Assembly (NCBI GenBank): GCA_965222155.1
Contig: CBDCTH010000012.1
Span: 2,304,001-2,368,000 of the forward strand
Source of the DNA: Gammaproteobacteria bacterium
GTDB lineage: Bacteria > Pseudomonadota > Gammaproteobacteria > Eutrophobiales > Eutrophobiaceae
DNA length: 64,000 bases
Direction: 5' to 3'
Below the pieces are notes generated by a model. That model worked only from the letters and a program-made list of their open reading frames with translations. It searched no databases and had not been told where the DNA came from. The position numbers and the translations under genes are program-made. Shown here piece by piece: positions 33,766 through 56,674 of the stretch. Each line of letters begins with the position of its first letter. The first letter of the stretch is position 1.

Positions 33766-33841
33766 GCCGGATTAGCTCAGTTGGTAGAGCGCCCGCCTTG
33801 TAAGCGGATGGTCGGCGGTTCGAATCCGTCATCCGGCACCA
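33766..33841 (+). tRNA. tRNA-Thr(TGT)
   Basis: GCCGGAT acceptor, TAGCTCAGTTGGTAGAGC D arm, CT-TGT-AA loop, GGTTCGAATCC, CCA end. Confidence 0.97.
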
Positions 33842-36704: not shown

Positions 36705-37061
36705 GGGGGCGTATCTGGTTTCGACGAGGGTACTGAATCCCAAGGGGCATGCCGAGGTGCAGATTACCTCGTAAATCCATCTGCATATTTAATAGTTGAC
36801 GAAAAGTACAACTACGCTCTGGCTGCCTAAACGCAGCTAGCCTCTGACTGATTTGTGCTTGTGCTTTCAACTCAGAGGTCATATACACAAGATCGCGATG
36901 AAGTTTGTCCAGCGCGGATTCGCTAAAACTTAATGGACTCGTTACCTGTATTCCCCCGCCGGTTCGGGTAACAGGTGATTAAATTTAAAGATTCGGCTAA
37001 GCATGTAGAACCGAAGGTTGATGGCTCGCGGACGCCGGTTCGACTCCGGCCGCCTCCACCA
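36705..37061 (+). ncRNA. ssrA: tmRNA
   Basis: 5' GGGGGCG..GGTTTCGAC, tag ORF ending YALAA* (36798-36830), 3' GGTTCGACTCCGGCCGCCTCCACCA. Confidence 0.96.
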
Positions 37062-39614: not shown

Positions 39615-40634
39615 CTAATGTGATATGATGGACGACATATCCCTGTCCTCATACAAATCTGAAGGAGGCCAGTTTTCCAGCCTCATCCCTAAAGATAAGC
39701 CGCGGGAAGCGAGTACGTCCTTGATTTCCGTCAGTGATTTTTTGCCCAGGTTCGGGGTCTTCAATAATTCCATTTCGGTACGTTGAATCAGGTCGCCGAT
39801 ATAATAAATACTTTCCGCTTTCAGGCAGTTTGCCGAACGGACCGTGAGTTCCAGGTCATCAACGGGACGCAACAGGACGGGGTCAATTTCCGGCTCATCA
39901 CTGGCTGCCGGGGTTTCCTCAGCCTGTTCCGCTTCCAGGTCAACAAATATGGACAACTGGTTGCGCAGGATAAGCGCCGCTTCCTTAATAGCTTCTTCCG
40001 GGTTGATTGTACCGTTCGTTTCCACTTCCAGAATTAACTTATCCAGGTCCGTCTGTTGTTCTACACGAGCACTCTGAACGTCATAAGAAACGCGTTTTAC
40101 CGGACTGAATGAAGCATCCAGCTTCAGCCTGCCAATACTCTGCCCGATGTCGTCATCCGGATTGCCTATGGTTACGGGGCGATAACCGCGCCCGCGCTCA
40201 ATGATAATACTCATATTCAACTCGCCCGCCCGGGTGAGATTTGCAATCAGGTGATCAGGATTAGCGATTTCCACGTCGTGGTCCAGCTTGATGTCACTTG
40301 CCTTGACTTCCCCCGGCCCCGTCTTGTTCAACGTCAAGGTGACATCATCCTTGGCATGTACATTGATCGCCAATTCCTTCAGGTTCAGCAGGATATCCGT
40401 TACATCCTCGTGCACACCGTCGATTGTCGTATACTCATGCAGCACACCATCTATCTCCACTTCGGTCACTGCACAACCTGACATGGATGACAATAAAACC
40501 CGGCGTAGCGCATTACCTAACGTATGGCCAAAGCCCCGATTTAGCGGTTCTATGGTTATTTTTGCCAGCGTAGTGCTGATGATTTCCACGTCAACCCGAC
40601 GCGGTTTTAATAATTCACTGAATGTTGAGGGCAT
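39615..40634 (-). CDS. rpoA: RNA polymerase alpha subunit
   Basis: [25 protein letters not shown]. Confidence 0.98.
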
Positions 40635-40655
40635 AGTTGTTGTTCCTATAGCTAC

Positions 40656-41276
40656 TTACTTGGAATAAAGTTCTACGACTAATTGTTCGTTTATATCCGA
40701 TGGTAATTCACTGCGCTCAGGTATTGATTTAAATAATCCAACCATCTTCTTGGTATCAACCTCTACCCATTCGGGGAACCCGATTTGATCTGCTACGTTA
40801 AGGGCATCCTGGATTCGTAGTTGTTTCTTGCTTTTTTCCCTTATCTCAACCTTATCCTCGGGTTTGACCTGATAAGATGGAATATTAACGGACTGTCCAT
40901 TCACCAATACCGATTTGTGACTTACCAACTGCCGGGATTCATTACGGGTGCAGCCAAACCCCATCCTGAACACCACAGTGTCCAGACGGCATTCAAGGAT
41001 TTGCAACAGGTTCTCTCCGGTGGAGCCTCTACGCCGTACCGCTTCCTTGTAATAGCGACGAAACTGCTTTTCCAGGACACCATAAATCCGTCGCAGTTTC
41101 TGTTTTTCCCTGAGTTGTACGGCATAATCAGACAACCTCTTCGCCCTGACACCTTGCTGTCCGGGTGGTTTGTCAATCTGGCATTTGGATTCAATAGGCC
41201 GCGCACGGCTTTTCAAGAACAGGTCGACGCCTTCACGGCGACTCAGCTTACATTTGGGTCCCAGGTAACGAGCCAT
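40656..41276 (-). CDS. rpsD: 30S ribosomal protein S4
   Basis: [16 protein letters not shown]; start corrected to 41276. Confidence 0.98.
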
Positions 41277-41286
41277 ATCTCCTCCT

Positions 41287-41530
41287 AACCCGGATTTCTC
41301 ACCAGGTGATGCGATGATCGCGCAGGATTTTTTGCGCCAGCGGGTGCCTGCGACCGAAAGCATAGCCGTAAGCTCTGGTTGAGGGAGCACGTGCCTGCTG
41401 GCGCAAAAAAGACAAGCGAGGGCGCATCAAGCGCAGTTTGTAATACTAACATAGTAAGAGTCCTACCATAACTTATTGACAACAAATATATTTCCGAGAG
41501 CAACAAGCGACCTGGTGTGAAATCCGGGTT
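41287..41530. mobile_element. MITE-like element copy A (rpsK-rpsD spacer)
   Basis: AACCCGGATTTCTCACCAG ... CTGGTGTGAAATCCGGGTT. Confidence 0.85.
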
Positions 41531-41534
41531 TAAC

Positions 41535-41921
41535 CTACACCCGCCTTCTTTTCGGCGGGCGGCAACCATTATGGGGGATGGGCGTTACATCAGTGATATT
41601 GGTGATTTTATAGCCCAATGCATTCAGAGCGCGTACTGCCGACTCTCGGCCCGGTCCGGGACCTTTAATATTCACTTCCAGGTTCTTCATACCGAACTCC
41701 TGCGCAACTTCACCCACTTTCTGCGCGGCGATCTGTGCCGCGAACGGTGTGCTCTTCCGTGACCCGCGAAATCCGCTGCCTCCGGCCGTAGCCCATGCAA
41801 GGGTATTTCCCTGCCTGTCGGTAATATTGATTATGGTATTGTTAAATGACGCATGTACATGCGCGATACCATCGACTACCGTTTTCTTAACCTTCTTTCT
41901 TGTGCTTCTCGGTTTTGCCAT
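41535..41921 (-). CDS. rpsK: 30S ribosomal protein S11
   Basis: [23 protein letters not shown]. Confidence 0.98.
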
Positions 41922-41937
41922 TCACTTTCTCGTAGTG

Positions 41938-42294
41938 TTACTTTTTGATTATTCGGCGCGGCCCTTTGCGGGTTCTCGCATTGGTGCGTGTACGCTGGCC
42001 GCGCAAGGGAAGTCCGCGCCGGTGACGGATACCTCGGTATGCGCCTAAATCCATCAGGCGCTTGATGTTCATGGATACATCCCTGCGTAAATCACCTTCC
42101 AACTCATAATTCGTTACTTCCGACCGCAGCAGATCAAGCTGATCCTCACTAAGCGACGATACCTTGACGCTCGGTTCTATTGCCGTTGCCGAACAAATCT
42201 TCCGGGCGGTAGTGCTTCCTATGCCGTAAATGTGAGTCAACGCGATGCTGACGTGCTTGTGGTCCGGAATATTTACCCCTGCTATACGAGCCAT
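41938..42294 (-). CDS. rpsM: 30S ribosomal protein S13
   Basis: [10 protein letters not shown]; start corrected to 42294. Confidence 0.98.
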
Positions 42295-42385
42295 TTGTTT
42301 TCTCTCTTGTTCGTTATCCGGAAGGGGACGGAATTGAATTCCGTCCCTGTACGATTTCGGCAAGTATCTCGAGTCACCATCCGGC

Positions 42386-42499
42386 TCACCCTTGCCGCTG
42401 CTTATGGCGCGGGTCGGAACAGATAACACGGACACTGCCCCGCCGGCGGATAATGCGGCAATTACGACACATCTTTTTTACCGAAGCCCTGACTTTCAC
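42386..42499 (-). CDS. rpmJ: 50S ribosomal protein L36 (not in ORF track)
   Basis: GTG start, [37 protein letters not shown]. Confidence 0.96.
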
Positions 42500-42546
42500 T
42501 TCATTCTCCCGTTACACCCGCGTATACCACTGTAGGATGCGCATTA

Positions 42547-43890
42547 TCAACGCCTCCCATGGCTTTTCAAATTGGCCTTCTTTAAAGCTCCTTCATACTG
42601 ATGCGACATTAAATGGGCCTGGATTTGCGCCATAAAGTCCATTACGACGACCACAATGATCAATAGTGATGTTCCGCCAAAATAAAACGGCACGTTATAC
42701 TGAATGATTAAGAACTCCGGTAACAGACAGACAAAAGTGATGTAGATGGCGCCCACCATGGTCAGTTTTGTCAATACGCCGTCAAGATACTTGGCGGTCT
42801 GTTCTCCCGGCCTCATCCCCGGTACGAACGCGCCTGACTTTTTCAGGTTATCCGCGGTTTCTCTGGGATCAAACACAACGGCCGTATAGAAAAAGCAAAA
42901 GAAAATGATTCCTGCGGCATAAAACGCAACGTATATGGGCTGTCCGGGTTGCAGCAATGTTGCCAGGTCCTGCAGCCAGCGCATTTCCCGGGCCTGACCC
43001 GCCCAGCTTGCCAGGGTCCCCGGAAACAGGATCAGGCTGGAGGCAAATATCGGGGGAATAACTCCCGCCATATTCAGCTTCAAGGGTAGATGGCTTGACT
43101 GGCCCGCGTATAATTTCCGTCCAACCTGGCGTTGAGCATAATTCACCGTAATCCTGCGTTGCCCCCGTTCGATAAACACGACGAAACCGGTAACGGCAAC
43201 TGCCAGCGCAAACAGGGTAAACACCATTATCAGGTGCAACTCCCCGGTACGGGATAACTCCAGCGTACCGCCGATCGCGGACGGTAAGCCGGCAACGATA
43301 CCGGCAAAAATGATCAATGAGATACCGTTACCTACACCTCGCTCGGTAATCTGTTCCCCCAACCACATCAGGAACATGGTCCCGGTTACCAGCGTAGTCA
43401 CCGCAGTGATACGAAACGCCATACCCGGATCCATGACAACCGAACCACCGGCTACCTGCTGCCCTTCCAGCGCCAGCGACACGCCCAGGGCCTGGAATGT
43501 AGCCAGTAGCACCGTTCCATATCTCGTATATTGGGTGATCCTGCGGCGTCCTGATTCACCTTCCTTGCGCAACTGCTTCAAGCGCGGGTCTACGAATGAC
43601 AAAATCTGCATGATGATCGAGGCGGATATGTAAGGCATGATGCCAAGAGCGACAACCGACAAACGCTCCAGGGCGCCTCCGGAAAACATATTGAACATAT
43701 CCAGGATAGTGCCCCGTTGCTGTTCAAACAATTGCGCCAGGGTATCCGGATTAATACCCGGGACGGGAATAAATGTGCATATCCGGTAGATGAACAGCGC
43801 AAACAGGACAAACAGCAGCCGCCTGCGCAACTCCGTTACCTGGGTCAACCCGGCGAGACCGCCTGCTATTGCGGGATTTCTTGTAGCCAT
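42547..43890 (-). CDS. secY: Preprotein translocase SecY
   Basis: [35 protein letters not shown]. Confidence 0.98.
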
Positions 43891-43895
43891 GCCCT

Positions 43896-44146
43896 AGCCC
43901 GGATATTGCATCAGTGGATGCGATGATCGCGCAGGATTTTTGGCGCTGACGGGTGCCTGCGACCGATAGCATAGCCGTAGCCGTAGCTCTGGTTGAGGGA
44001 GCACGTGCCCGTCAGCGCCAAAAAGACAAGCGAGGGCGCAGCCAGCGCTGCTTGTCACGCCAATTAAGTCAATATAAGTCATATAACTATATGATTGTAC
44101 AAAAATTCCAGTATTCTTCTAAGCGGACTGGTGCAATATCCGGGCT
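43896..44146. mobile_element. MITE-like element copy B (rplO-secY spacer)
   Basis: AGCCCGGATATTGCATCAG ... CTGGTGCAATATCCGGGCT. Confidence 0.85.
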
Positions 44147-44580
44147 CACTCTTCGAATTTCCCACCGGCTGCCTCAATGGCAGCCCGCGCCGCTTTGGTT
44201 GCTCGCATTCCCTTTATGGTGACCGCCTTGCCGATCGTCCCGCTGGCAATAATTTTTACTCTCTTGATTTTTCTTGAGATCAGACCGGCTTTTTTCAGCG
44301 TATCCAGGTCGATGATTTCGGCAGCCGCTTGCTCCAGTTCATCAAGCCGAATTTCATCGGTAATCCGCGCCAGGTAGGACCGAAAACCGACCTTGGGGAG
44401 ACGCCGTTGCAACGGCATTTGTCCACCCTCAAAACCTACCTTGTGATACCCGCCTGAACGTGACTTCTGCCCTTTATGACCGCGGCCTGCCGTCTTCCCC
44501 TGTCCGGAGCCGATACCCCGCCCTACTCGCTTGGCTGAGCGTTTGGCGCCACCCGCAGGTTTGATTGAATTCAGTCGCAT
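44146..44580 (-). CDS. rplO: 50S ribosomal protein L15
   Basis: [21 protein letters not shown]. Confidence 0.98.
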
Positions 44581-44581
44581 T

Positions 44582-44773
44582 TCAGATTCCATCGATAGTC
44601 AACAAATAACTTACCTTATTAATCATGCCCCGGTTTTCCGCAGTATCCGCAACCATTACCGAATGACCTATACGACGCAGCCCGAGTCCCGTAACACAGG
44701 CTTTGTGTTTTGCGGTCCTGCGATTGACACTGCGTTTCAAGGTTACTCTTAACTGTTTCTTTTGCGCAGCCAT
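44582..44773 (-). CDS. rpmD: 50S ribosomal protein L30
   Basis: [16 protein letters not shown]. Confidence 0.96.
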
Positions 44774-44775
44774 GA

Positions 44776-45282
44776 TTATCCGGTAATTTCCTCAACTGCT
44801 TTACCGCGCTTTGCCGCGAAATATTCCGGCGCAGCCATCGACTGTAACCCTTTCATTGTGGTGCGCACCACGTTAACCGGGTTGGTCGAACCGGTGCATT
44901 TGGCCAGGACATTATGAATGCCGGCACACTCAAACACCGCGCGCATGGCGCCACCGGCAATAATACCGGTACCATCGGAAGCCGGTTGCATATACACATT
45001 AGCGGCACCGTGCCTCGCACTGATTGCGTAGTGCAGGGTATCACCGTTAAGCGGGATGCTGATCATATTCCGGCGCGCCTTTTCCATGGCCTTCTGTATC
45101 GCAACGGGCACTTCCCGCGCCTTGCCCCGGCCGAAACCGACCTTGCCGTTACCGTCACCGACAACGGTCAGGGCCGTAAAGCCGAATACACGCCCACCCT
45201 TGACGACCTTGGCCACCCGGTTGACTGCAACTAATTTCTCCAGTAAGTCCTCATTACCGGTGATGGATTCTGATACCGCCAT
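44776..45282 (-). CDS. rpsE: 30S ribosomal protein S5
   Basis: [19 protein letters not shown]. Confidence 0.98.
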
Positions 45283-45304
45283 GCTGGTTTTATCTCCTCA
45301 CCTG

Positions 45305-45658
45305 TTAGAATTTCATGCCTTGTTCCCTGGCGGCATCTGCCAGCGCCTTCACTCTGCCATGGAACTTGAAACCTGAGCGGTCAAATGCAACCGTGATAAT
45401 ACCGACCTTCTTTGCACGTTCTGCAATCATCTGACCTACAACTCCCGCCGCTTCCCTGTTGCCGCCGTTTTTTATCCTGGCGCGAATTTCCTTATCAAGG
45501 GTGGATGCGCTGACGATTACTTCCGACCCGCTCGGAGCGATCACTTGGGCATAGATATGCCGGGGCGTGCGGAACACACATAACCGGCCCACCTCTTGCG
45601 TCTTGATACGCATGCGTGATTTTACCGACCTTCTCAATCTTGCTGTTTTCTTATTCAT
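45305..45658 (-). CDS. rplR: 50S ribosomal protein L18
   Basis: [19 protein letters not shown]. Confidence 0.98.
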
Positions 45659-45666
45659 TGTCGGTT

Positions 45667-45911
45667 AACCCGGATATTGCACCAGTGGATGCGATGATCG
45701 CGCCGGATTTTTTGCGCTGACGGGTGCCTGCGACCGAAAGCATAGCTGGGACTCTGGTTGAGGGAGCACGTACCCGTCAGCGCAAAAAAGACAAGCGAGG
45801 GCGCATCCAGCGAAGTTTGTCACAGCATAAATTTTAGAATTAGTCATATAACTATATGATTGTAAGCAAATTTTAGTATCTCTCCAAGCAGACTGGTGCA
45901 ATATCCGGGTT
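45667..45911. mobile_element. MITE-like element copy C (rplF-rplR spacer)
   Basis: AACCCGGATATTGCACCAGT ... ACTGGTGCAATATCCGGGTT perfect 20-bp IR. Confidence 0.85.
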
Positions 45912-46444
45912 CAAGCCTTCTTTGCTTCCTTGCGTAGAATATGTTCATCAGCATAGCGTACGCCTTTCCCCTTATAAGGTTCGGGCGGTCGGTAACTACG
46001 GATCTCTGCCGCCACTTGTCCGACCCTCTGTTTGTCCGAGCCCCTGATTATGATCTGGGTCTGGCTGGGGGTCTCAACCGAAATGTCGTCGGGAATAGCA
46101 ATATCCACGGGATGGGAAAATCCCAGGGCCAGGTTGATGCTCCCCGGATTTGCCTGGGCGCGATATCCCACCCCGGTTATCTCGAGTTTGATCTCAAATC
46201 CGTCGGAAACACCCGTCACCATGTTCTGTAAAATCGCTCTGGTGGTGCCTGACAGGGCCCGCGCCGACTTGGAGCCATCCTTTGCTGAAAACTTCAACAG
46301 GTCGCCTTCCCGCTCCAACTGCACAAGTGAATTAATTGTGTGTGTCAATTCACCCTTACTGCCCTTGACCAGCACTACTGTGCCGTTCACGTCGACCTGC
46401 ACGTTGTCAGGGATGGCTATCGGGTTATTGGCAACTCTTGACAT
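45911..46444 (-). CDS. rplF: 50S ribosomal protein L6
   Basis: GVGYRA, PEPYKGKG. Confidence 0.98.
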   Translation of the reverse strand: MSRVANNPIAIPDNVQVDVNGTVVLVKGSKGELTHTINSLVQLEREGDLLKFSAKDGSKSARALSGTTRAILQNMVTGVSDGFEIKLEITGVGYRAQANPGSINLALGFSHPVDIAIPDDISVETPSQTQIIIRGSDKQRVGQVAAEIRSYRPPEPYKGKGVRYADEHILRKEAKKA

Positions 46445-46454
46445 GTCTTATCTC

Positions 46455-46697
46455 AGCCCGCATTTCTCACCAGTTGATGCGATGATCGCGCAGGATTTTT
46501 GCCGCCAGCGAGTGCCTGCGACCGAAAGCATAGCCGTAGCTATGGTTGAGGAAGCACGTGCCCGCTGGCGGCAAAAAGACAAGCGAGGGCGCATCAAGCG
46601 CAGTTTGTAAAAGTGACATAGTGAATAATACATTTTAACTCATTAGCAGCAAAAAAATATCCGGTGACGATAAGCGAACTGGTGAGAAATACGGGCT
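46455..46697. mobile_element. MITE-like element copy D (rpsH-rplF spacer)
   Basis: AGCCCGCATTTCTCACCAGTT ... AACTGGTGAGAAATACGGGCT. Confidence 0.85.
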
Positions 46698-47091
46698 AAG
46701 CTACGAGACAGATAATCTCGCCACCAATACCCAGTTTCCTGGCGCTCTTGTCCGTCATTACACCCTTGGAAGTGGAGATGATGGCCGTTCCCAGTCCCCC
46801 GTATACCTGGGGCAACTTATCACCGGAGCTGTAGCGGCGTAATCCCGGCGAGCTCACGCGTTTCAATAATTCAATAACCGGCTTGCCCTCAAAATACTTC
46901 AATTCAATGGTTAATACCGGCTTGGCCGTTTCTTCATCCACACTGAAGCCGGTAATATAGCCCTCTTCCTGGAGGATTTTTGCCACGGCAAGTTTGGGTT
47001 TTGATGAAGGCATGCTGACTTCCCGCTTTAACCTTTCCTGGCCGTTGCGAACCCGTGTCAGCATATCCGATATTTGATCCTGTAAGCTCAT
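46696..47091 (-). CDS. rpsH: 30S ribosomal protein S8
   Basis: [16 protein letters not shown]; start corrected to 47091. Confidence 0.98.
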
Positions 47092-47122
47092 TCTGAATTC
47101 TCTTGCAGCCTCGTCAGTTTTC

Positions 47123-47428
47123 TCACCAGCTCGCTTTGACCAGGCCCGGGATATCCCCGCGCATTGCGGCCTCACGCAGCTTATTTCTTCCCAGTCCGAA
47201 TTTCCTGTAATAACCATTCGGGCGCCCTGTCAGGGTGCATCGATTTCTCAGTCTGGATGGACTGGAATCTCTGGGTAATTTATTCAATTGTACTCTTGCT
47301 TCCTTACGCTCTTCCGGAGTTAACGACATATCCTTGATAATGCGCTTCAAACCAGTACGTTTTTCAGCATATTTTTCGACCAGTTTCTCCCTTTTCCGCT
47401 CTCGATTTACCGTTGATGTTTTTGCCAT
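47123..47428 (-). CDS. rpsN: 30S ribosomal protein S14
   Basis: [20 protein letters not shown]. Confidence 0.98.
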
Positions 47429-47440
47429 AAGTTTTCTCTG

Positions 47441-47992
47441 TTATGAGCCTGCTTGAGTCCGCAACGGAAAATTGAACGCCTTCAACAAGGCCTCAGCCTC
47501 CTCATCCGTTTTCGCCGAAGTCGTGATTGTTACATCCAGGCCGCGCAGCGTATCGATCTTGTCATAATCGATTTCCGGAAAAATAATCTGCTCTTTCACG
47601 CCCAGGCTGTAATTGCCGCGTCCATCAAACGCGCGCGGGCTTAAGCCCCGAAAATCCCTGATCCTGGGAATGGCGACTGAAATCAGCCGATCCAGGAACT
47701 CATACATGCGTGTACGTCGCAGCGTAACCTTGCAACCATTCGGAAAGCCCTTCCTGACCTTGAAATTTGCAACGGACTTCTTTGCGTTGATCACGATCGG
47801 TTTCTGCCCGGAAATCAGCGTCATGTCATCAACCGCATGTTCAATCATTTTTTTATCGGCCATTGCCTTGCCCAGCCCCATGTTCAGGGTAATTTTGGTT
47901 ATCTTCGGCACCTGCATTGACGACGTATAGCCGAACTGTTCCATCAACTGCGGAGCAATTGTAGTCCGATAATATTCCTGTAATCTTGCCAT
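47441..47992 (-). CDS. rplE: 50S ribosomal protein L5
   Basis: [20 protein letters not shown]. Confidence 0.98.
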
Positions 47993-48006
47993 CTTAACCT
48001 TGTCGT

Positions 48007-48327
48007 TCAAACATCGACTACTTCATTATTGGATTTGAAAAAACGGACTTTCCGACGATCTTCCAAAAACCGGAAGCCCACACGATCCGGTCTGTTTGAC
48101 ACCGGATTCCATAGTGCAATATTCGAAATTGCAAACGCCATTTCCTTCTCTACAATGCCTCCGGGCGTTCCCTGCATGGGATTACCCTTGGTATGGCGTT
48201 TGGCCATATTAATATTTTCGACGATGACCTTATTGCTGTTCATGTTAACACTCAGCACGATTCCGCGTTTACCCTTATCCTTGCCGGTAATAACGACTAC
48301 TTCGTCACCTTTTCGTATCCTGTTCAT
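48007..48327 (-). CDS. rplX: 50S ribosomal protein L24
   Basis: [16 protein letters not shown]. Confidence 0.98.
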
Positions 48328-48347
48328 GGGTTATCCTGCAGCCTTGA

Positions 48348-48716
48348 CTATAAAACCTCGGGAGCGAGGGAAACGATTTTCATAAAATTCTCATTCCTGA
48401 GTTCACGGGTGACCGGACCGAATATCCGTGTGCCGATAGGTTGCAACTGATTATTCAGCAGCACGGCGGCATTACTATCGAATCGTATCAATGAACCGTC
48501 CGGTCTCCTCACTCCTTTTTTAGTCCGCACCACCACAGCGTTGTACAGCTCTCCCTTTTTTACCTTGCTTCTCGGGATAGCTTCCTTGACACTGACCTTT
48601 ATCACGTCACCCACACCAGCATAACGTCTTTTCGAACCACCCAGGACTTTCACACACATGAGACGACGCGCGCCACTGTTGTCCGCGGCCCCCAGTATTG
48701 TCTGCATCTGGATCAT
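48348..48716 (-). CDS. rplN: 50S ribosomal protein L14
   Basis: [21 protein letters not shown]. Confidence 0.98.
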
Positions 48717-48777
48717 CTGTGCACTCCGACTGATTTCTCAACCCGATGCAATGGCGGAAGAATTGAATACATTTGCA

Positions 48778-49044
48778 TCATATTTCCTGAGCCTTACTGA
48801 CAATACTGCGTAACCGCCATGCCTTGCTTTTGGAAATGGGTCGAGATGACTCAATAATGACCATATCGCCTTCATTACACTCGTTATTTTCATCATGAGC
48901 GAGCAGCCTGGTTGTACGCCTGATATATTTCCCATAGAGCGGATGTTTTACAGTCCGCCGGATATTTACGGCAATGGACTTATCCATCTTGTTGCTGACA
49001 ACCGTCCCCGTCAGTGTTCTGGCTGATTTCCCGGATTCACTCAT
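48778..49044 (-). CDS. rpsQ: 30S ribosomal protein S17
   Basis: [21 protein letters not shown]. Confidence 0.98.
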
Positions 49045-49234
49045 CTTGTTTTGCTTTCTCGTTTAACACCGTTTTAATCCTGGCAATTTCCCGGCGCACC
49101 ACCTTAAAACGGCTTGGGTTACCGAGTTGGCCGGAACCTTTTTGCATACGCAGGTTAAATTGTTCACGCAGCATATCCAGGAGAAGTTCCTGCAACTCAT
49201 TGGGTTTCCTGCCTCTTAATTCAGCAGCCTTCAT
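49037..49234 (-). CDS. rpmC: 50S ribosomal protein L29
   Basis: [17 protein letters not shown]. Confidence 0.97.
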
Positions 49235-49647
49235 TACAGTATGGTCCTGCTGACGAATGTGGTTTTGATCGGTAATTTCGCCGCGGCAAGCCTGAACGCA
49301 TCTCTTGCCAGCACTTCCGGTACGCCTTCAATTTCGTACAGCATCTTACCTGGCTGAACAACGGATACCCAGTATTCAACATTGCCTTTACCCTTGCCCT
49401 GGCGTACCTCCAGGGGCTTTGTCGTTATCGGTTTATCAGGAAAAATCCGTATCCAGATTTTTCCTCCCCGTTTGACTTTGCGGGTAATCGTACGGCGGGC
49501 AGCCTCAATCTGGCGCGCAGTAATCCGTCCCCGGGTAATAGCCTTCAATCCGAACTCGCCAAAACTGACCTTGTTGCCATTGTTGGCAAGCCCGCGATTT
49601 CTACCCTTGCTTTGCTTTCTGAATTTGGTTCGTTTCGGTTGTAACAT
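49234..49647 (-). CDS. rplP: 50S ribosomal protein L16
   Basis: [17 protein letters not shown]. Confidence 0.98.
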
Positions 49648-49651
49648 TTGC

Positions 49652-50326
49652 TTATGCTCGCATCACAGGCGTTTCATCATCATCAGCCCTGTCTTCGATA
49701 TTGAACACTTCACCTTTGAATATCCAGACCTTTACACCAATGACTCCATAAGTCGTATTCGAGTTGGCAATCCCGTAATCAATGTCGGCCCGTAAGGTAT
49801 GCAACGGTACCCGCCCCTCCCGATACCACTCGGAACGAGCAATTTCCGCGCCGTTCAAACGACCGCTGACATTGATTTTAATGCCCAGAGCGCCAAGCCT
49901 CATTGAATTGGTTACCGCGCGCTTCATGGCCCGCCTGAACATAATCTTTCTTTCGATTTGCTGGGCGACACTCTCCGCCACCAGGTTTGCGTCAAGTTCA
50001 GGCTTCCTGATTTCCCGCACGCTGACTTTCGCCCTGAGACCCATCATATCCGAGACCTCCTGGCTTAACCGCTCGATATCTTCACCTTTCTTGCCGATTA
50101 CGATCCCCGGTCTGGCGCTGTGTATGATTACCTTGACTTCATTGGGGGGACGTTCGATCTGGATGCGGCTGACCGAGGCGTTAACAAGTTTTTTCCTGAG
50201 GAATTCACGCACCTGCAGGTCTGTATTCAAAAACCTTGCATAATCTTTCGTATCAGCATACCAGGTGGACGTCCAGTCCTTGATGATACCGATGCGAAAA
50301 CCCGTTGGGTGTACTTTCTGTCCCAT
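49652..50326 (-). CDS. rpsC: 30S ribosomal protein S3
   Basis: [23 protein letters not shown]. Confidence 0.98.
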
Positions 50327-50333
50327 AGTTTGT

Positions 50334-50669
50334 CTACTCTGTCGTCTCAGTGACCGTTATTACCAAATGGCTGGTGCGTTTGAAAATCCTGTCGGCGCGT
50401 CCCCGGGCCCGGGTACGTAAACGCTTGTGCGTAGGCCCCTTGTCAACGGTTATTGCAGTTATTTTCAGTTCGTCTATATCCGCAGCCTCATTATGTTCGG
50501 CATTCGCAATCGCCGACTCCAGTACTTTCTTGACGATCCCGGCAGCCTTCTTATTACTGTAAGCCAGAATATTCATTGCACGATCAACCGACAATCCGCG
50601 CACCTGGTCGGCAACCAGTCGCAACTTTTGCGGCGCCATACGCACAAATTTAAGACATGCAGTCGTCAT
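50334..50669 (-). CDS. rplV: 50S ribosomal protein L22
   Basis: [20 protein letters not shown]. Confidence 0.98.
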
Positions 50670-50685
50670 TGCCCTGTTACTCTCT

Positions 50686-51172
50686 AGCCCGGATATTGCA
50701 CCAGTGGATGCGATGACAAATCGTCAGGATAGACGATTTGCACGGCCGCAGGCCGCCGTAAGGTTGCGCCCAAGGATGGGCGCAATGAACGCGCAGGATT
50801 TTTGACGCTGACGGGTGCCCGCGACCGAAAGCATAGCTGGGATTGATGCGCCCCATCCATGGGGCGCTCCCTGCGGGCGTCCTTCGGACGTCCAAATCTG
50901 CTCCAGGCAGATTTGTCTGGTTGAGGGACAAATCGGCAGGATAGCCGATTTGCACGGCGACAGCCGCCCGTTGGGTTGCGCCCAGAGCCTGCCCCTGCGG
51001 TTGTAAGCAGGGGGATGGGCGCAATGAGCATGTACCCGTCAGCGTCAAAAAGACCAGCGAGGGCGCATCCAGCGTAGTTTGTAATTGCGCAAATGTTAAA
51101 ATTAGTCATATAACTATTTGATTGAACGTAATTTATTTCTTCTTACAAGCGAACTGGTGTAATATCCGGGCT
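50686..51172. mobile_element. MITE-like element copy E (rpsS-rplV spacer) with three nested insertions
   Basis: Same IRs; inserts at 50717-50788, 50844-50915, 50929-51027. Confidence 0.85.
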
Positions 51173-51174
51173 TC

Positions 51175-51450
51175 CTACTTTGATGTTTTTTTATCCGCGG
51201 CATGGCCGCGAAACGTCCGGGTTATGGCAAACTCGCCCAGTTTATGGCCGACCATATTCTCGGAAATAAAAACCGGTACGTGGTGCCGGCCATTATGTAC
51301 TGAAATGGTCAGCCCGACCATATCCGGCACTATCATTGACCTTCTGGACCACGTCTTAATTGGACGTTTGTCATTATTTTGAAGCGCAGTTTCGACCTTT
51401 TTGCTCAGGTGATGGTCTATGAACGGCCCTTTTTTTATTGAACGCGGCAT
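51175..51450 (-). CDS. rpsS: 30S ribosomal protein S19
   Basis: [19 protein letters not shown]. Confidence 0.98.
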
Positions 51451-51462
51451 TGCCAATCTCTC

Positions 51463-52287
51463 CTAGCTCTTCCTTTTACGAATAATCATATTGTCGGTAC
51501 GTTTGTTCTTCCTTGTTTTATAGCCTTTCGTGGGATAACCCCAGGGCGTGGATGGGTGCCGTCCCCCGGATGAACGTCCCTCACCGCCTCCATGGGGATG
51601 ATCCACCGGATTCATCGCCACGCCGCGTACCGTCGGACGTATTCCGCGCCAGCGTTTTGCCCCCGCCTTGCCCAATTTTTGCAGTGAATGTTCGACGTTA
51701 CTCACCTCTCCGATGGTGGCACGGCAATCCAGCGGCGCCTTTCTCACTTCACCCGAACGCAGGCGCAATGTCGCATGGGCGCCTTCCCGGGCCACTAACT
51801 GCACACTGGTGCCGGCGCTACGCGCCAGTTGCGCGCCCTTACCCGGCTTTAATTCCACGCAATGAACGTTTGCTCCCACCGGAATATTGCGCAGGGCCAG
51901 ACTGTTCCCGGGCGCTATTTCGGCCCGTGGACCGGACATCACCTGTGCTCCGGCCGCCACGCCGGCAGGGGCAATGATATAACGGCGCTCGCCATCCGCA
52001 TAACATAACAGGGCAATATGCGCGGTCCGGTTAGGATCGTATTCTATTCTCTCCACCGTGGCCGCAATACCGTCCTTGTCGCGTTTAAAATCAATGAACC
52101 GATAGCGTTGTTTTGCGCCACCGCCCCGGTGTCTTACGGTAATTCTGCCGCGATTGTTGCGGCCGGCGGTCTTGCCCTGCTTTTCCACTAACGGGCTGTA
52201 CGGTTTACCCTTATACAGGTCCGGGTTGACGACCTTGACAACGCCCCGGCGGCCTGCTGAAGTTGGTTTCGGATTAATTAGCGGCAT
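51463..52287 (-). CDS. rplB: 50S ribosomal protein L2
   Basis: [20 protein letters not shown]. Confidence 0.98.
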
Positions 52288-52293
52288 TTATCT

Positions 52294-52587
52294 TCAGGCT
52301 CCAATGAAATCTATGTCAAAGCCGGGTTTCAGCCTGACGTAAGCTTTCTTCCAGTCCGAGCGTTTGCCCGGCGCCCGCCGAAACATCTTTTTCTTGCCGC
52401 GCACGTTCAGTACCTGTACCGACTCAACCTCGACTTCAAACATTTTTTCCACTGCTTGTTTAATCTCCGGTTTGGTTGCATCACGCATGACCTTGAAGAC
52501 AAATTGCCGGTATTTATCAGCCGTGAACGTACTTTTTTCCGTCACCCGCGGCCCCAGCAAAATATTCATGAGCCTTTCGTCATTCAT
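52294..52587 (-). CDS. rplW: 50S ribosomal protein L23
   Basis: [20 protein letters not shown]. Confidence 0.98.
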
Positions 52588-53287
52588 CTTTACCCTCTCC
52601 AGCTTCTGCTTCCCCGTCTGCGGTCTCGCTCACGCTGACTTCCGGCTCTACTTGTCTGTGGTTTGTTTTCGGTTCCAGCCATTTTTCCACTTCTTCCAGG
52701 GCTGGTTTGGTAATCAGCACCCGGTTGAACCCGACCAGTGAATATGGATCGATTTCATGGGTATTTATAACGGCAACCCGCGCCAGGTTACGGGTCGCCA
52801 GGTGTAATTCTTCGCTGATGGAGTTGGTGATAATCAGCACCTCGTCCAGACCCAGCTGCGCCAATAGCTCAACTGCCGCCTTTGTCTTCGCCGCGCTGAC
52901 ATTCAATTGATCGATACAAAGCAGCCTTTCCTGACGAACCAGCTCGGACAGAATTGACCGCATAGCCCCGCGATACATCTTTCTGTTCACTTTCTTGGTG
53001 TAATTACGCTGGTTATTTGTGAAAGTAACACCGCCTCCACGCCAGAGCGGGCTCCTGATCGTGCCGGCCCTGGCCCGGCCAAGGCCTTTCTGGCGCCAGG
53101 GCTTTTTCCCGCCGCCTCTCACCGCGGAACGGTTTTTCAGCGATTTGAAAGCGGACCTGCCGCTCGACAGGTAAGAGGTAATCACCTGATGCACCAGGGG
53201 TTCATTGTAATCGGCAGCAAACACCTTATCGGCAACTTCCACTCGACCTGCCCGTTTTTTTCCGGCTTTGTGCAATACCAATTTCAC
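52580..53287 (-). CDS. rplD: 50S ribosomal protein L4 (GTG start, acidic C-terminal extension)
   Basis: [21 protein letters not shown]. Confidence 0.97.
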
Positions 53288-53297
53288 CTTGGCTCTC

Positions 53298-53945
53298 TTA
53301 CGTTCCGGCTGACTTGAGCGCGGGCCTGACGATAAGCGTCCCGCCGGCGGCGCCCGGTACGGCGCCTTTGACAAGAACCAGGTTCCGTTCAGTATCAACC
53401 CTGACAACTTCCAGGTTCTGTGCCGTCCGTTTCACGTTGCCCATGTGCCCCGCCATCTTCTTGCCGGGGAAAACACGCCCCGGCGACTGGTTCTGACCTA
53501 TCGAACCGGGAGCCCGATGGGCACGGGAGTTGCCGTGAGTGTTACGCTGACTGCTGAAATTATGCCGTTTTATTACACCTGCGTAGCCTTTTCCAATTGA
53601 CTTGCCGGTCACGTCGACTTTCTGTCCGACCTTGAAAATATCTACCGTTATTTCGGATCCCGTACTCAATTCCCCGGCTTCTTTACCATCCAACCTGAAT
53701 TCATGCAGCCCCTCTGCAGATTCAACACCGGCCTTGGCCAGGGTTCCGGCCAGGGGCTTATTAATCAGGTTGCGGCGCTTGCTGCCATAAGAGACTTGTA
53801 CGGCGCGGTAGCCGTGTTGCTCCACAGTAGACAAGGAGGTAATCCTGTTAGGGTCGGCTTCGATCACGGTTACCGGCACAGACTGGCCTGTTTCCGTGAA
53901 TATCCGGGTCATACCCCGCTTTTTTCCTACTATTCCAATCGCCAT
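53298..53945 (-). CDS. rplC: 50S ribosomal protein L3
   Basis: [22 protein letters not shown]. Confidence 0.98.
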
Positions 53946-53960
53946 CTTTCTGACCCGTCT

Positions 53961-54204
53961 AACCCGAATATTGCACCAGTGGATGCGATGATCGCGTAGG
54001 ATTTTTTGCGCTGGCGGGCGCCTGCGACCGAAAGCATAGCAGGAACTCTGGTTGAGGGAGCACGTGCCCGCCAGCGCAAAAAAGACAAGTGAGGGCGCAT
54101 CCAGCGCTGTTTGTCACGGCAACAAAATTTGAATTAGCCATATAACTATTTGATTGTACAATATTTTAGCCTTTTTACGAGCGAACTGGCGCAATATCCG
54201 GGTT
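53961..54204. mobile_element. MITE-like element copy F (rpsJ-rplC spacer)
   Basis: AACCCGAATATTGCACCAGT ... ACTGGCGCAATATCCGGGTT. Confidence 0.85.
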
Positions 54205-54217
54205 AATCCTGTTATCC

Positions 54218-54532
54218 TCAGCTCAGCTTTATCTGGACGTCCACGCCCGCTGCGAGGTCAAGTTTCATTAACGCGTCAACCGTTTTATCCGTGGGGTTGA
54301 CGATATCCACCAGGCGCTTATGAGTCCTGATTTCATACTGATCTCTGGCATCCTTGTTGACATGGGGCGATATCAAAACGGTATAGCGTTCTTTTTTTGT
54401 CGGCAGTGGGATTGGCCCCTTGACCTGGGCGCCGGTGCGGCGCGCAGTCTCAACAATCTCGCGGGTCGACTGATCGATCAACCGGTGATCGAACGCCTTC
54501 AGCCTGATCCTTATAACCTGTTGTTCCGCCAT
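54218..54532 (-). CDS. rpsJ: 30S ribosomal protein S10
   Basis: [17 protein letters not shown]. Confidence 0.98.
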
Positions 54533-54568
54533 AGTTATTTCACTCTATTCACAGTACCTGATGATTGC

Positions 54569-56674
54569 TTAGCTGGTATTTTTTTTCGTTATATCTTCCG
54601 CAATTCCAGGCGGAACGGGGGTATATTTCGCGAACTCCATCGTGTAAGTGGCGCGTCCCTGAGTGGCTGAACGTAACGCGGTGGCATAACCGAACATCTG
54701 CTCAAGCGGCACTTCCGCCTTGATGATCTTGCCGGCCGGGGAAGTCATAGTCTCTGACAAGATGCCGCGGCGGCGGCTCAAATCACCTGTCACCGAACCA
54801 AGGTAATCTTCCGGAGTCACGATTTCCACGCTCATGACCGGTTCCAGCAGGACCGGCGCGGCGCGCCCGGCGCCATCCTTAAAGCCCAGGGAGCCGGCTA
54901 TCTTGAAAGCCATTTCACTGGAATCCACTTCATGATAGGAGCCGTCGTACAAAGTGACTTTCACGTCCACCATCGGGTAACCGGCTATAACGCCGTTCTC
55001 CATTTGTTCCTGTATGCCCTTATTCACTGCCGGGATATAATCTTTGGGTACGGCGCCGCCGACAATCTTGTTTATGAACTCATAGCCGTGCCCGGGTTCC
55101 TGCGGCTCGATTTTCAGTATCACATGGCCGTATTGACCGCGCCCTCCGGTTTGACGTACAAACCTGCCTTCCGCTTTCTCCACCGGTTTTCTGATGGTTT
55201 CGCGATAGGCCACCCGCGGCTTGCCGACGTTGGCGTCAACCTTGAATTCCCGTTTCAACCGGTCCACGATAATCTCCAGGTGCAATTCACCCATTCCCGA
55301 GATTATGGTTTGCCCGGACTCATCATCGGTATGTACTCGAAATGAGGGATCTTCCTGCGCCAGTTTACCCAGGGCCATACCCATTTTTTCCTGGTCGGGC
55401 CTGGTTTTCGGCTCAACTGCGACGGAAATGACCGGGTCCGGAAATTCCATTTTTTCCAGGACAATTGCCTGACCCGCCGCACACAGTGTATCGCCCGTCG
55501 TGACGTCCTTAAGGCCCACCGCGGCGGCTATATCCCCCGCCCTGACCTCGCTTATTTCTTCCCGTGAATTGGCGTGCATCTGCAAAATCCGTCCGATGCG
55601 CTCTTTCTTGCTTCTCACGGAGTTTAACACCATGTCGCCGGATTTAAGTACGCCGGAATAAACCCGGAAAAAAGTCAGCGAACCGACAAACGGGTCGGTG
55701 GCAATCTTGAAGGCAAGCGCCGCAAACGGCTCGGTATCGGTGGAATGCCGGGTAATTTCAGTTTCGGAGGTATTCGTGAGTACGCCTGTTACGGCAGGAA
55801 CGTCATCCGGCGCAGGGAGGTAGTCAATAACGGCATCCAGCATACACTGGACACCTTTATTCTTGAACGCCGAACCACACAGCACCGGAACTATCTCATT
55901 TGCCAGGGTTCTTGCCCGGATGCCTTGTTTAATTTGTTGTTCCGACAAAACACCTTCTTCCAGGTACAACCCCATCAATTCTTCATCAGCCTCAGCGGCA
56001 GCTTCCACTACCTGTTCACGGGCCTCCTGACAGACGTCCACCATGTCTTCCGGGATATCTTTCTCGGTGAACTTCGTTCCCTTGCTCGATTCATCCCAGT
56101 AAATCGCCCTGCCGCGGATCAGGTCAACAATGCCCTGAAATTGATGTTCCGACCCTATCGGGAGTTGTAACGGAACGGCCGTGCTCCCCAGGCGCTCTTT
56201 TATCTGGTTGACAACCCTGAGGAAATCCGCGCCGGACCGATCCATTTTATTGACGAACGCCAATCTCGGCACATTATACTTGGTTGCCTGGCGCCATACG
56301 GTTTCCGACTGCGGCTCAACGCCGCCTACGGCGCAAAAAACGGCGCAGGCCCCGTCCAGTATTCTGAGAGACCTTTCAACTTCAATGGTGAAATCAACGT
56401 GTCCCGGCGTATCGATTATATTGATTCGATGTTCCCGGTATTGGCCGGCCATACCTTTCCAAAAACAGGTAGTCGCCGCGGAAGTGATCGTGATGCCCCG
56501 TTCCTGCTCCTGTTCCATCCAGTCCATAGTAGCGGCGCCGTCATGTACTTCACCTATCTTATGGGAAACCCCGGTGTAATACAGAATGCGCTCTGTGGTC
56601 GTCGTCTTACCAGCATCAATATGCGCCATGATGCCGATATTCCGATAACGTTCGATGGGGATACTACGCGCCAT
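54569..56674 (-). CDS. fusA: Elongation factor G
   Basis: [23 protein letters not shown]. Confidence 0.98.

Follow-up and report, generated by a model that had tools for sequence, protein, structure and literature searches.

Six structured elements in the S10, spc and alpha ribosomal protein operons of a gammaproteobacterium are probably recent copies of a genome-wide miniature transposable element

The window analysed here is a 64,000-nucleotide stretch of the gammaproteobacterial assembly GCA_965222155.1 (Eutrophobiaceae; contig CBDCTH010000012.1, forward strand, C12:2304001-2368000). It contains the S10, spc and alpha ribosomal protein operons, and an earlier reading of the letters alone (the sequence-only reading) had noticed six co-oriented elements in their spacers. 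Our results indicate that these six elements are probably recent, tolerated copies of an ordinary, non-autonomous miniature inverted-repeat transposable element (MITE) that occurs throughout the genome and is mobilised by an insertion sequence (IS) of the IS1380 family, and probably not a built-in regulatory device. The six belong to one family that is present in many copies, is randomly oriented genome-wide, shares its ends with the IS, is flanked by YTAR and is missing from the same sites in relatives. Five features typical of a MITE were found: short length with many copies, terminal inverted repeats (TIRs), a flanking duplication, empty orthologous sites and ends shared with an IS.

We located the elements by repeat search, alignment and nhmmer. 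The results showed that the rpsJ-rplC, rpsS-rplV, rpsH-rplF, rplF-rplR, rplO-secY and rpsK-rpsD spacers each hold one element of ~243 bp bounded by 20-bp TIRs, and that all six are co-oriented; the S10, spc and alpha operon genes lie on the minus strand of the window. These coordinates and the recomputed distances to the neighbouring stop and start codons agreed with the sequence-only reading, and the family model matched nothing else within C12:2304001-2368000, as expected from its statement that there is no complete copy in the other 39 kb. Pfam identified 10 of the 11 genes flanking the six spacers (S10, L3, S19, L22, S8, L6, L18, L15, S11 and S4), and secY was assigned from a 447-aa frame. 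From rpsJ-rplC to rpsK-rpsD, the gaps between stop codon and element were 13, 2, -2, -1, -1 and 4 nt, and those between element and next start 15, 16, 10, 8, 5 and 10 nt. The elements sit exactly between stop and start, and neither reading frame is broken. The five simple copies measured 243-251 bp (nhmmer E-values 7e-65 to 4e-78), and the rpsS-rplV copy is a normal copy lengthened to 487 bp by three small repeats (98, 74 and 73 nt) nested within it. The features are as follows.

53961..54204, minus strand: MITE copy in the rpsJ-rplC spacer, 13 nt past the rpsJ TGA and 15 nt ahead of the rplC ATG; TIR type ATATTGCGCCAG; nhmmer E 4e-66
50686..51172, minus strand: MITE copy in the rpsS-rplV spacer, 487 bp, with three small repeats nested; found by alignment and nhmmer
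50928..51025, minus strand: nested repeat n1, 98 nt, within the central hairpin of the rpsS-rplV copy; direct repeat D9
50842..50915, minus strand: nested repeat n2, 74 nt; 18 BLAST matches in the genome covering at least 80% of its length
50717..50789, minus strand: nested repeat n3, 73 nt, related to n1 (D9); 18 BLAST matches covering at least 80% of its length
46455..46697, minus strand: MITE copy in the rpsH-rplF spacer, overlapping the rpsH TAG by 2 nt and 10 nt ahead of the rplF ATG; major TIR type ATTTCTCACCAG; E 4e-78
45667..45911, minus strand: MITE copy in the rplF-rplR spacer, overlapping the rplF TGA by 1 nt and 8 nt ahead of the rplR ATG
43896..44146, minus strand: MITE copy in the rplO-secY spacer, overlapping the rplO TGA by 1 nt and 5 nt ahead of the secY ATG
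41287..41530, minus strand: MITE copy in the rpsK-rpsD spacer, 4 nt past the rpsK TAG and 10 nt ahead of the rpsD ATG, with the Shine-Dalgarno sequence AGGAGG kept; E 1e-77

Repeat arms of 20 bp were 95-100% complementary in four of the six elements (inverted pairs I19, I20 and I25), and pair I15 was 87% complementary over 30 nt; the arms of these pairs (I15, I19, I20 and I25) span 20-30 nt with 87-100% complementarity. Two runs (X1 and X3), each from a different study, gave DNA contigs that cross from the flanking genes into the element ends with 0 differences, for example over 44240-45693, 45190-45693 and 52460-53978, indicating that the insertions are real DNA and not an artefact of one assembly.

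We compared these spacers across the genus, which comprises 23 genomes, and read the operons of 19 relatives. Those of G016, G017 and G031 were excluded (fragmented, or without a secY match), and that of G006 is partial, with nothing past secY. G032, the nearest relative, shares 94.4-97.2% identity in rplB, secY, rpsC and rpoA. In the comparison with empty sites that the sequence-only reading had proposed, G032 was empty at all six sites, with spacers of 6-29 nt, indicating that the six insertions are recent and unconserved. The only full copies in the 19 operons were those of G002 in rplF-rplR and of G009 in rpsS-rplV, both sense. Closer relatives were empty at these two sites, indicating independent insertions in the same spacers; G009 also carried an antisense fragment in rplF-rplR. 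By eye, repeat-like short stretches were seen in the rpsH-rplF spacers of G006, G003 and G002 and in rpsS-rplV of G006, the sole nhmmer match among them being G002 rpsH-rplF (E 5.7). Their sequences suggest that they may be remnants of earlier, later deleted insertions. In G006 (L100), the rpsS-rplV and rpsH-rplF spacers are otherwise short and contain the TIR-like stretches GAGCCCGGATA and CAGGATATTGCAC.

The family was found in 21 of the 23 genomes; a first look gave 155 candidates in G000 and 53 in G032 (candidates, not copy numbers). In a tree of copies, the operon copies fell into at least three lineages, and the rplO-secY, rpsJ-rplC and rplF-rplR copies clustered with C12:3121382. The shared lineage of at least three operon copies suggests local spread. 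The nearest neighbours of the operon copies were 83-88% identical to them, so conservation is no higher in the operon copies than in the rest of the family.

We built a profile from 32 full-length BLAST matches and searched the genome of the window (4.55 Mb in 12 contigs) by nhmmer. The 231 matches formed 177 chains and 144 non-overlapping loci, 73-74 of which had both ends; among the 74 both-end chains, 33 were simple and 41 carried internal insertions. Copies differ by insertions and deletions and by nested insertions, and a shorter form of ~165 nt, without the AT-rich arm, also occurs. Of the loci, 94 are flanked by co-directional genes, 27 by divergent and 22 by convergent ones. Relative to co-directional neighbours outside the ribosomal operon, 41 loci were sense and 46 antisense; the counts were 22 and 24 for both-end copies, and 11 and 13 for tight junctions. 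An orientation bias, which the sequence-only reading had singled out for checking, was therefore not seen outside the operon. Sense copies were seen in atpD-atpC, nuo, pcnB-folK and aceK-icd, and antisense copies in tight junctions of trmD-rplS, nusA-infB, spoT-recG and nlpD-rpoS; the antisense copies in trmD-rplS and nusA-infB weaken any orientation rule. Most tight-junction copies are flanked by ordinary metabolic genes. The internal insertions of the 41 both-end copies fall at recurring positions, indicating that the MITE is itself a target for other small repeats. Near one copy, an IS630-type transposase gene (DDE_3 and HTH domains, 432 aa) ends 14 nt ahead of the MITE (G000:C9:19051-20606; L152).

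A partner IS was sought by pairing repeat matches at IS-like distances in the genome of the window. The results showed two TIR-bounded 1768-bp elements (C4:218571-220338 and C12:1242097-1243864) and one degraded 1641-bp element. The product of the 1768-bp elements matched PF13701 with 401.6 bits and NF033539 (transpos_IS1380) with 313.8 bits, against a cut-off of 180. In relatives, frames of 483-508 aa that no stop interrupts were present at 10 listed places in G004, at six in G002 and at one each in G005, G007, G011, G031 and G032. Six inspected IS copies (from G000, G004, G031, G007, G005 and G002) were 1763-1769 bp long, and five of them start CCCGSATATCTCAC, like the MITEs. For the MITE at C12:651250, which represents one subfamily, 17 of 17 terminal bases were identical to the left end of the G004 IS. 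As judged from these identities, the terminal repeats of the MITE correspond to the ends of an IS1380-family IS.

An IS630/Tc1 partner had been followed first, because the flanks were initially read as a TA duplication; there were four DDE_3 matches above the Pfam cut-off and a weak one below it, and this candidate was dropped when the TIR-bounded 1.77-kb elements proved to be IS1380-family. The sequence-only reading had expected an IS with matching inverted repeats and had thought of IS982. Such an IS was found, and IS982 was set aside since the partner belongs to IS1380, no comparison with an IS982 model being made. Its statement that no cognate transposase is in the window was borne out for positions 40000-55500, where the list of open reading frames (ORFs) holds no transposase gene. 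Its description of the elements as inverted-repeat-bounded MITEs holds as well, given the 20-bp TIRs, the 144 loci and the ends shared with the IS. Taken with the near-even orientation counts and the autonomous partner family, this largely amounts to what that reading had called ordinary MITE colonisation, the outcome it had set against its own proposal.

We examined the bases flanking each copy. Across 70 copies, the left flanking 4-mer followed Y/T/A/R in 80/79/96/97% and the right one in 97/97/86/89%. Both flanking 4-mers were identical in 24 of 61 copies (10 CTAG, 9 TTAA, 4 CTAA and 1 CTAT), five of them being non-palindromic, and in five of the six IS copies, including the non-palindromic CTAT and TTAG. 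G032 has one TTAA at rplF-rplR and one CTAG at rpsH-rplF, in just the places where the genome of the window has the element between two such 4-mers. From these sequences, the flanks most likely reflect a 4-bp YTAR duplication, or possibly a duplication of TA only within a YTAR target. YTAR includes TAA or TAG, which explains the contact of the elements with stop codons. The called stop codon was overlapped by 1-2 nt in 17 of 70 complete copies, and outside the operon in 14 of 65 (9 sense and 5 antisense). Contact with stop codons is thus a property of the whole family that follows from target choice.

These observations are consistent with the following course of events. The element is a long imperfect fold-back that ends in 20-bp TIRs and has an AT-rich stretch of ~80 nt in one of its arms; an IS1380-family IS with the same ends would mobilise it in trans. 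The transposase would integrate at YTAR, mostly CTAG or TTAA, most likely duplicating all four bases, possibly TA alone. In tight operon junctions, the stop codon may often be the sole usable target that spares the genes. Duplication of the target would recreate the stop at one end of the element, and at the other end the spacer, Shine-Dalgarno sequence and start would stay as they were, so that such insertions would be non-disruptive and tend to be retained. The six operon copies would have inserted after the split from the nearest relative, in a burst that roughly tripled the copy number, and may remain as passengers that are neutral or slightly harmful. The 20-bp stem of paired repeats probably closes in the mRNA where stop and start meet, and there a terminating ribosome would melt it. 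This might help to maintain translational coupling, as a passive property of either orientation and not as a selected function.

To describe the fold of the element, we combined energy calculations with a covariation alignment of 25 simple copies, of which 5 came from the operon and 20 from among the 28 simple copies outside it. Whichever strand was folded, each copy did far better than its shuffles, with -105.3 kcal/mol (z -8.6) for the mRNA strand and -121.4 kcal/mol (z -10.0) for the opposite strand. In the consensus fold, the 20-bp termini pair together, and two short helices and a 16-bp helix prolong the long fold-back, with ~80 AT-rich bases of the 5' arm left unpaired. Compensatory double changes were found in 27 of 56 predicted pairs, and 97.2% of cells were paired over the 25 copies (97.4% in helix 1, formed by the terminal repeats). 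None of 500 shuffles matched this covariation, and slid controls reached 34-45% paired cells. These results justify the word structured for the elements. Among 1400 stem cells, 16 were G-U and 24 A-C, indicating a strand-symmetric signal; such symmetric covariation is the expectation for a DNA palindrome and not for an RNA selected on one strand. The pairing of the inverted repeats in mRNA put forward by the sequence-only reading agrees with prediction, the terminal-repeat stem being predicted to close in all six transcripts with 19-20 of 20 pairs. If Correia elements are a guide, such a perfect duplex of 20 bp could plausibly serve as a substrate for RNase III. In Rfam 15, the elements had no match at gathering score, and none was obtained at E up to 1 on 45600-46760.

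Several observations weigh against the reading of ordinary, IS1380-mobilised copies. Among the matches listed in this genome there was no intact IS1380-family transposase: the two best each contain one in-frame TAG, and of the other 18, 5 have stops and 13 are partial without stops. The partner family was found here and an active transposase in the same genome was not, so mobilisation in this genome would have to be deduced from the relatives. In the genome of the window, the in-frame TAG interrupts the transposase after 399 residues and the remainder continues in frame; it is common to both near-complete copies (L106:251-1940 and L107). As regards the 4-bp duplication, 52 of 61 copies had complementary inner flanking bases, which would also be expected if TA alone were duplicated, and one IS copy was flanked by CTAA/TTAG. 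The orientation counts rest on a crude in-house ORF caller (4047 calls), which missed some small genes. The operon is also the densest cluster in the genome, with 6 copies (7 chains) in 13.4 kb and 4 for the runner-up. With the operon named in advance, ~0.95 copies would be expected in its 27 junctions, giving a Poisson P(>=6) of ~5e-4 by hand calculation. All six copies, and the full operon copies of G002 and G009, share one orientation. Finally, four of the six operon copies have a 1-nt insertion within the T^A of one flanking YTAR, which is unexplained and looks rare in other copies by eye. The local density, the shared orientation and these 1-nt insertions remain mildly unexplained, leaving a small probability for orientation-dependent tolerance. 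The 1-nt insertions lie at window positions 45909-45912, 44144-44147, 46451-46455 and 41530-41534 (TTGAA, GTGAG, CTGAG and TTAAA), and in two cases the insertion converts the upstream TAA/TAG stop of the relative to TGA.

One alternative takes the shared orientation as its starting point: the element would insert in either orientation, and only the sense one would be compatible with S10/spc/alpha expression, an antisense hairpin with a T-run being one possible reason; the paired repeats would either loop it out of the mRNA or create a site for RNase III that balances the cistrons. We consider this unlikely. It can call on the 6/6 sense copies together with those of G002 and G009, on the repeat stem predicted in every one of the six transcripts, and on a weak resemblance to a terminator, TGCGATGATCGCG with a T-run after it, which five of the six copies show on their antisense strand. 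Passages in PMC10969869 and PMC2229807 add that Correia repeats are cut by RNase III and that ERIC effects depend on orientation. However, antisense copies stand in the tight junctions listed above, where the two orientations are near balance, and G009 holds its antisense fragment in one of the operon spacers themselves. If the copies were independent, all six would share one orientation with a two-sided probability of 0.03 (hand calculation), but the orientations are not independent because at least three copies share one lineage. The terminator-like site consists of 5 pairs with a spacer before the T-run, and such sites were not in excess in the region (22 vs 16.7 in shuffles, standard deviation 4.1). 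When the element was reversed in silico, the predicted unpaired probability of the downstream ribosome binding site, a folding proxy, stayed the same within 0.06. A promoter scan was at chance level (13 sites vs 13.0 expected), and the sites within the elements differed between copies. A combined version, in which the YTAR target puts the MITE on stops, the terminating ribosome unzips the stem and hands over to the next start, coupling is kept, the element can settle even in ribosomal protein operons that are essential and tightly coupled, and only one orientation is tolerated in S10/spc/alpha, would in our view have only a slim chance of being right.

The sequence-only reading had also raised a preference for highly transcribed operons and a domesticated processing or stoichiometry element, and neither fared well. 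A transposase that prefers open, heavily transcribed operons, and so enriches the ribosomal protein cluster, is in line with the density of this operon, with further tight-junction copies in atpD-atpC, nuo, nusA-infB and trmD-rplS, and with the over-representation of IS1380 between co-directional genes in a large survey, as a passage of PMC9208149 has it. In a genome-wide scan, however, clustering was not significant, 478 of 2000 random placements on junctions giving at least 6 copies in some 27-junction run. Across the 19 relatives' operons, the two full copies and one fragment, set against ~850 loose first-look candidates in the 22 other genomes of the genus, represent no excess over the share of junctions, and the genes beside most tight-junction copies are ordinary metabolic ones. 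We therefore regard targeted insertion as very unlikely. Still less can be said for copies kept because they set the relative output of the ribosomal protein cistrons, which we hold to be extremely unlikely. The exact placement at intercistronic junctions and the strong compensatory covariation of the fold would fit such a role, but the covariation is equally strong outside operons and strand-symmetric, as for a DNA palindrome, and no Rfam family was matched. The six sites are empty in G032, full copies fill any given site in at most one of the 19 operons read from relatives, and the operon copies are no better conserved than the rest.

We also inspected RNA runs, which are contigs and carry no ends, strand or levels; the small-share runs X17-X20 were left out. 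Runs X15 and X16 differed from the window at many positions and joined 53958 to 54208 via TATCTA and 41285 to 41536 via AAT. Excision of the elements from RNA was considered and rejected as an explanation of these joins, which are the spacers of the empty sites of a G032-like relative.

Among known systems, the closest are the IS1380-family ISs themselves, which share the terminal repeats CCCGSATATCTCAC..., the YTAR flanks and the genus, and have a transposase above the NCBIfam IS1380 cut-off. The MITE differs in being ~243 bp long, in lacking a transposase gene and in resembling the IS at its termini alone. The IS1380 family generates duplications of 4-5 bp, and ERIC elements are ~127 bp long. 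The Correia/NEMIS elements of Neisseria are likewise small, inverted-repeat-bounded and co-transcribed with their neighbours, and their repeat stems can be RNase III substrates, according to passages in PMC10969869, PMC2229807 and PMC2649163; they belong to another host clade and another putative transposase family, and are likened here by description, not by sequence. The Geobacter uraniireducens MITE Chunjie has one operon copy, as described in part of PMC10969869, compared with six here. ERIC/IRU repeats of enterobacteria are also fold-back repeats in polycistronic transcripts, with effects of ERIC on mRNA stability that depend on orientation (passages in PMC2229807); they too are likened by description, and the orientation effect is a feature of ERIC. 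IS1380 transposases form the outgroup in piggyBac trees, and piggyBac integrates at TTAA, as stated in parts of PMC10813416 and PMC7351741, respectively. TTAA is one of the two commonest flanks of the MITE; piggyBac is eukaryotic, whereas the MITE is bacterial and its target is relaxed to YTAR. Literature searches on MITEs in ribosomal protein operons, IS1380-derived MITEs and sponge-symbiont MITEs returned no earlier description of this family, which is not proof of absence; as far as these searches show, the family is newly described.

These findings bear on how compact operons can accommodate transposons. Target choice alone, with a stop codon inside YTAR, can render an insertion harmless there, and the S10/spc/alpha cluster, usually thought closed to insertions, carries six structured inserts of 243-487 bp in a genome found in nature. 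Within the genus, a comparison is provided by nature itself, with sites that are filled here and empty in a relative of 94-97% identity in four operon genes, and with independent insertions in two of the same spacers in two species. This comparison of filled and empty sites can be used to measure the effects of inserts on translational coupling and ribosomal protein stoichiometry.

Other small elements were noted in the same operons of relatives. In G033 (L110), the rplB-rpsS spacer holds an unrelated palindromic element of 271 nt with repeats of ~30 nt, lying between two CTAG at the rplB stop, and further enlarged spacers without a match to the MITE family occur in G002, G003, G004, G005, G010 and G014. 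The ribosomal operon spacers of the genus have been repeatedly colonised by several small elements. The ~165-nt short form of the MITE was also found at L052:5017-5178, in a record titled as a Thermodesulfobacteriota metagenome-assembled genome with a locus GC of 65.7%, which could reflect cross-phylum transfer or mis-binning. Upstream of the element region, the window contains a tmRNA gene (36705-37061; 202.6 bits) and a tRNA gene (33766-33838).

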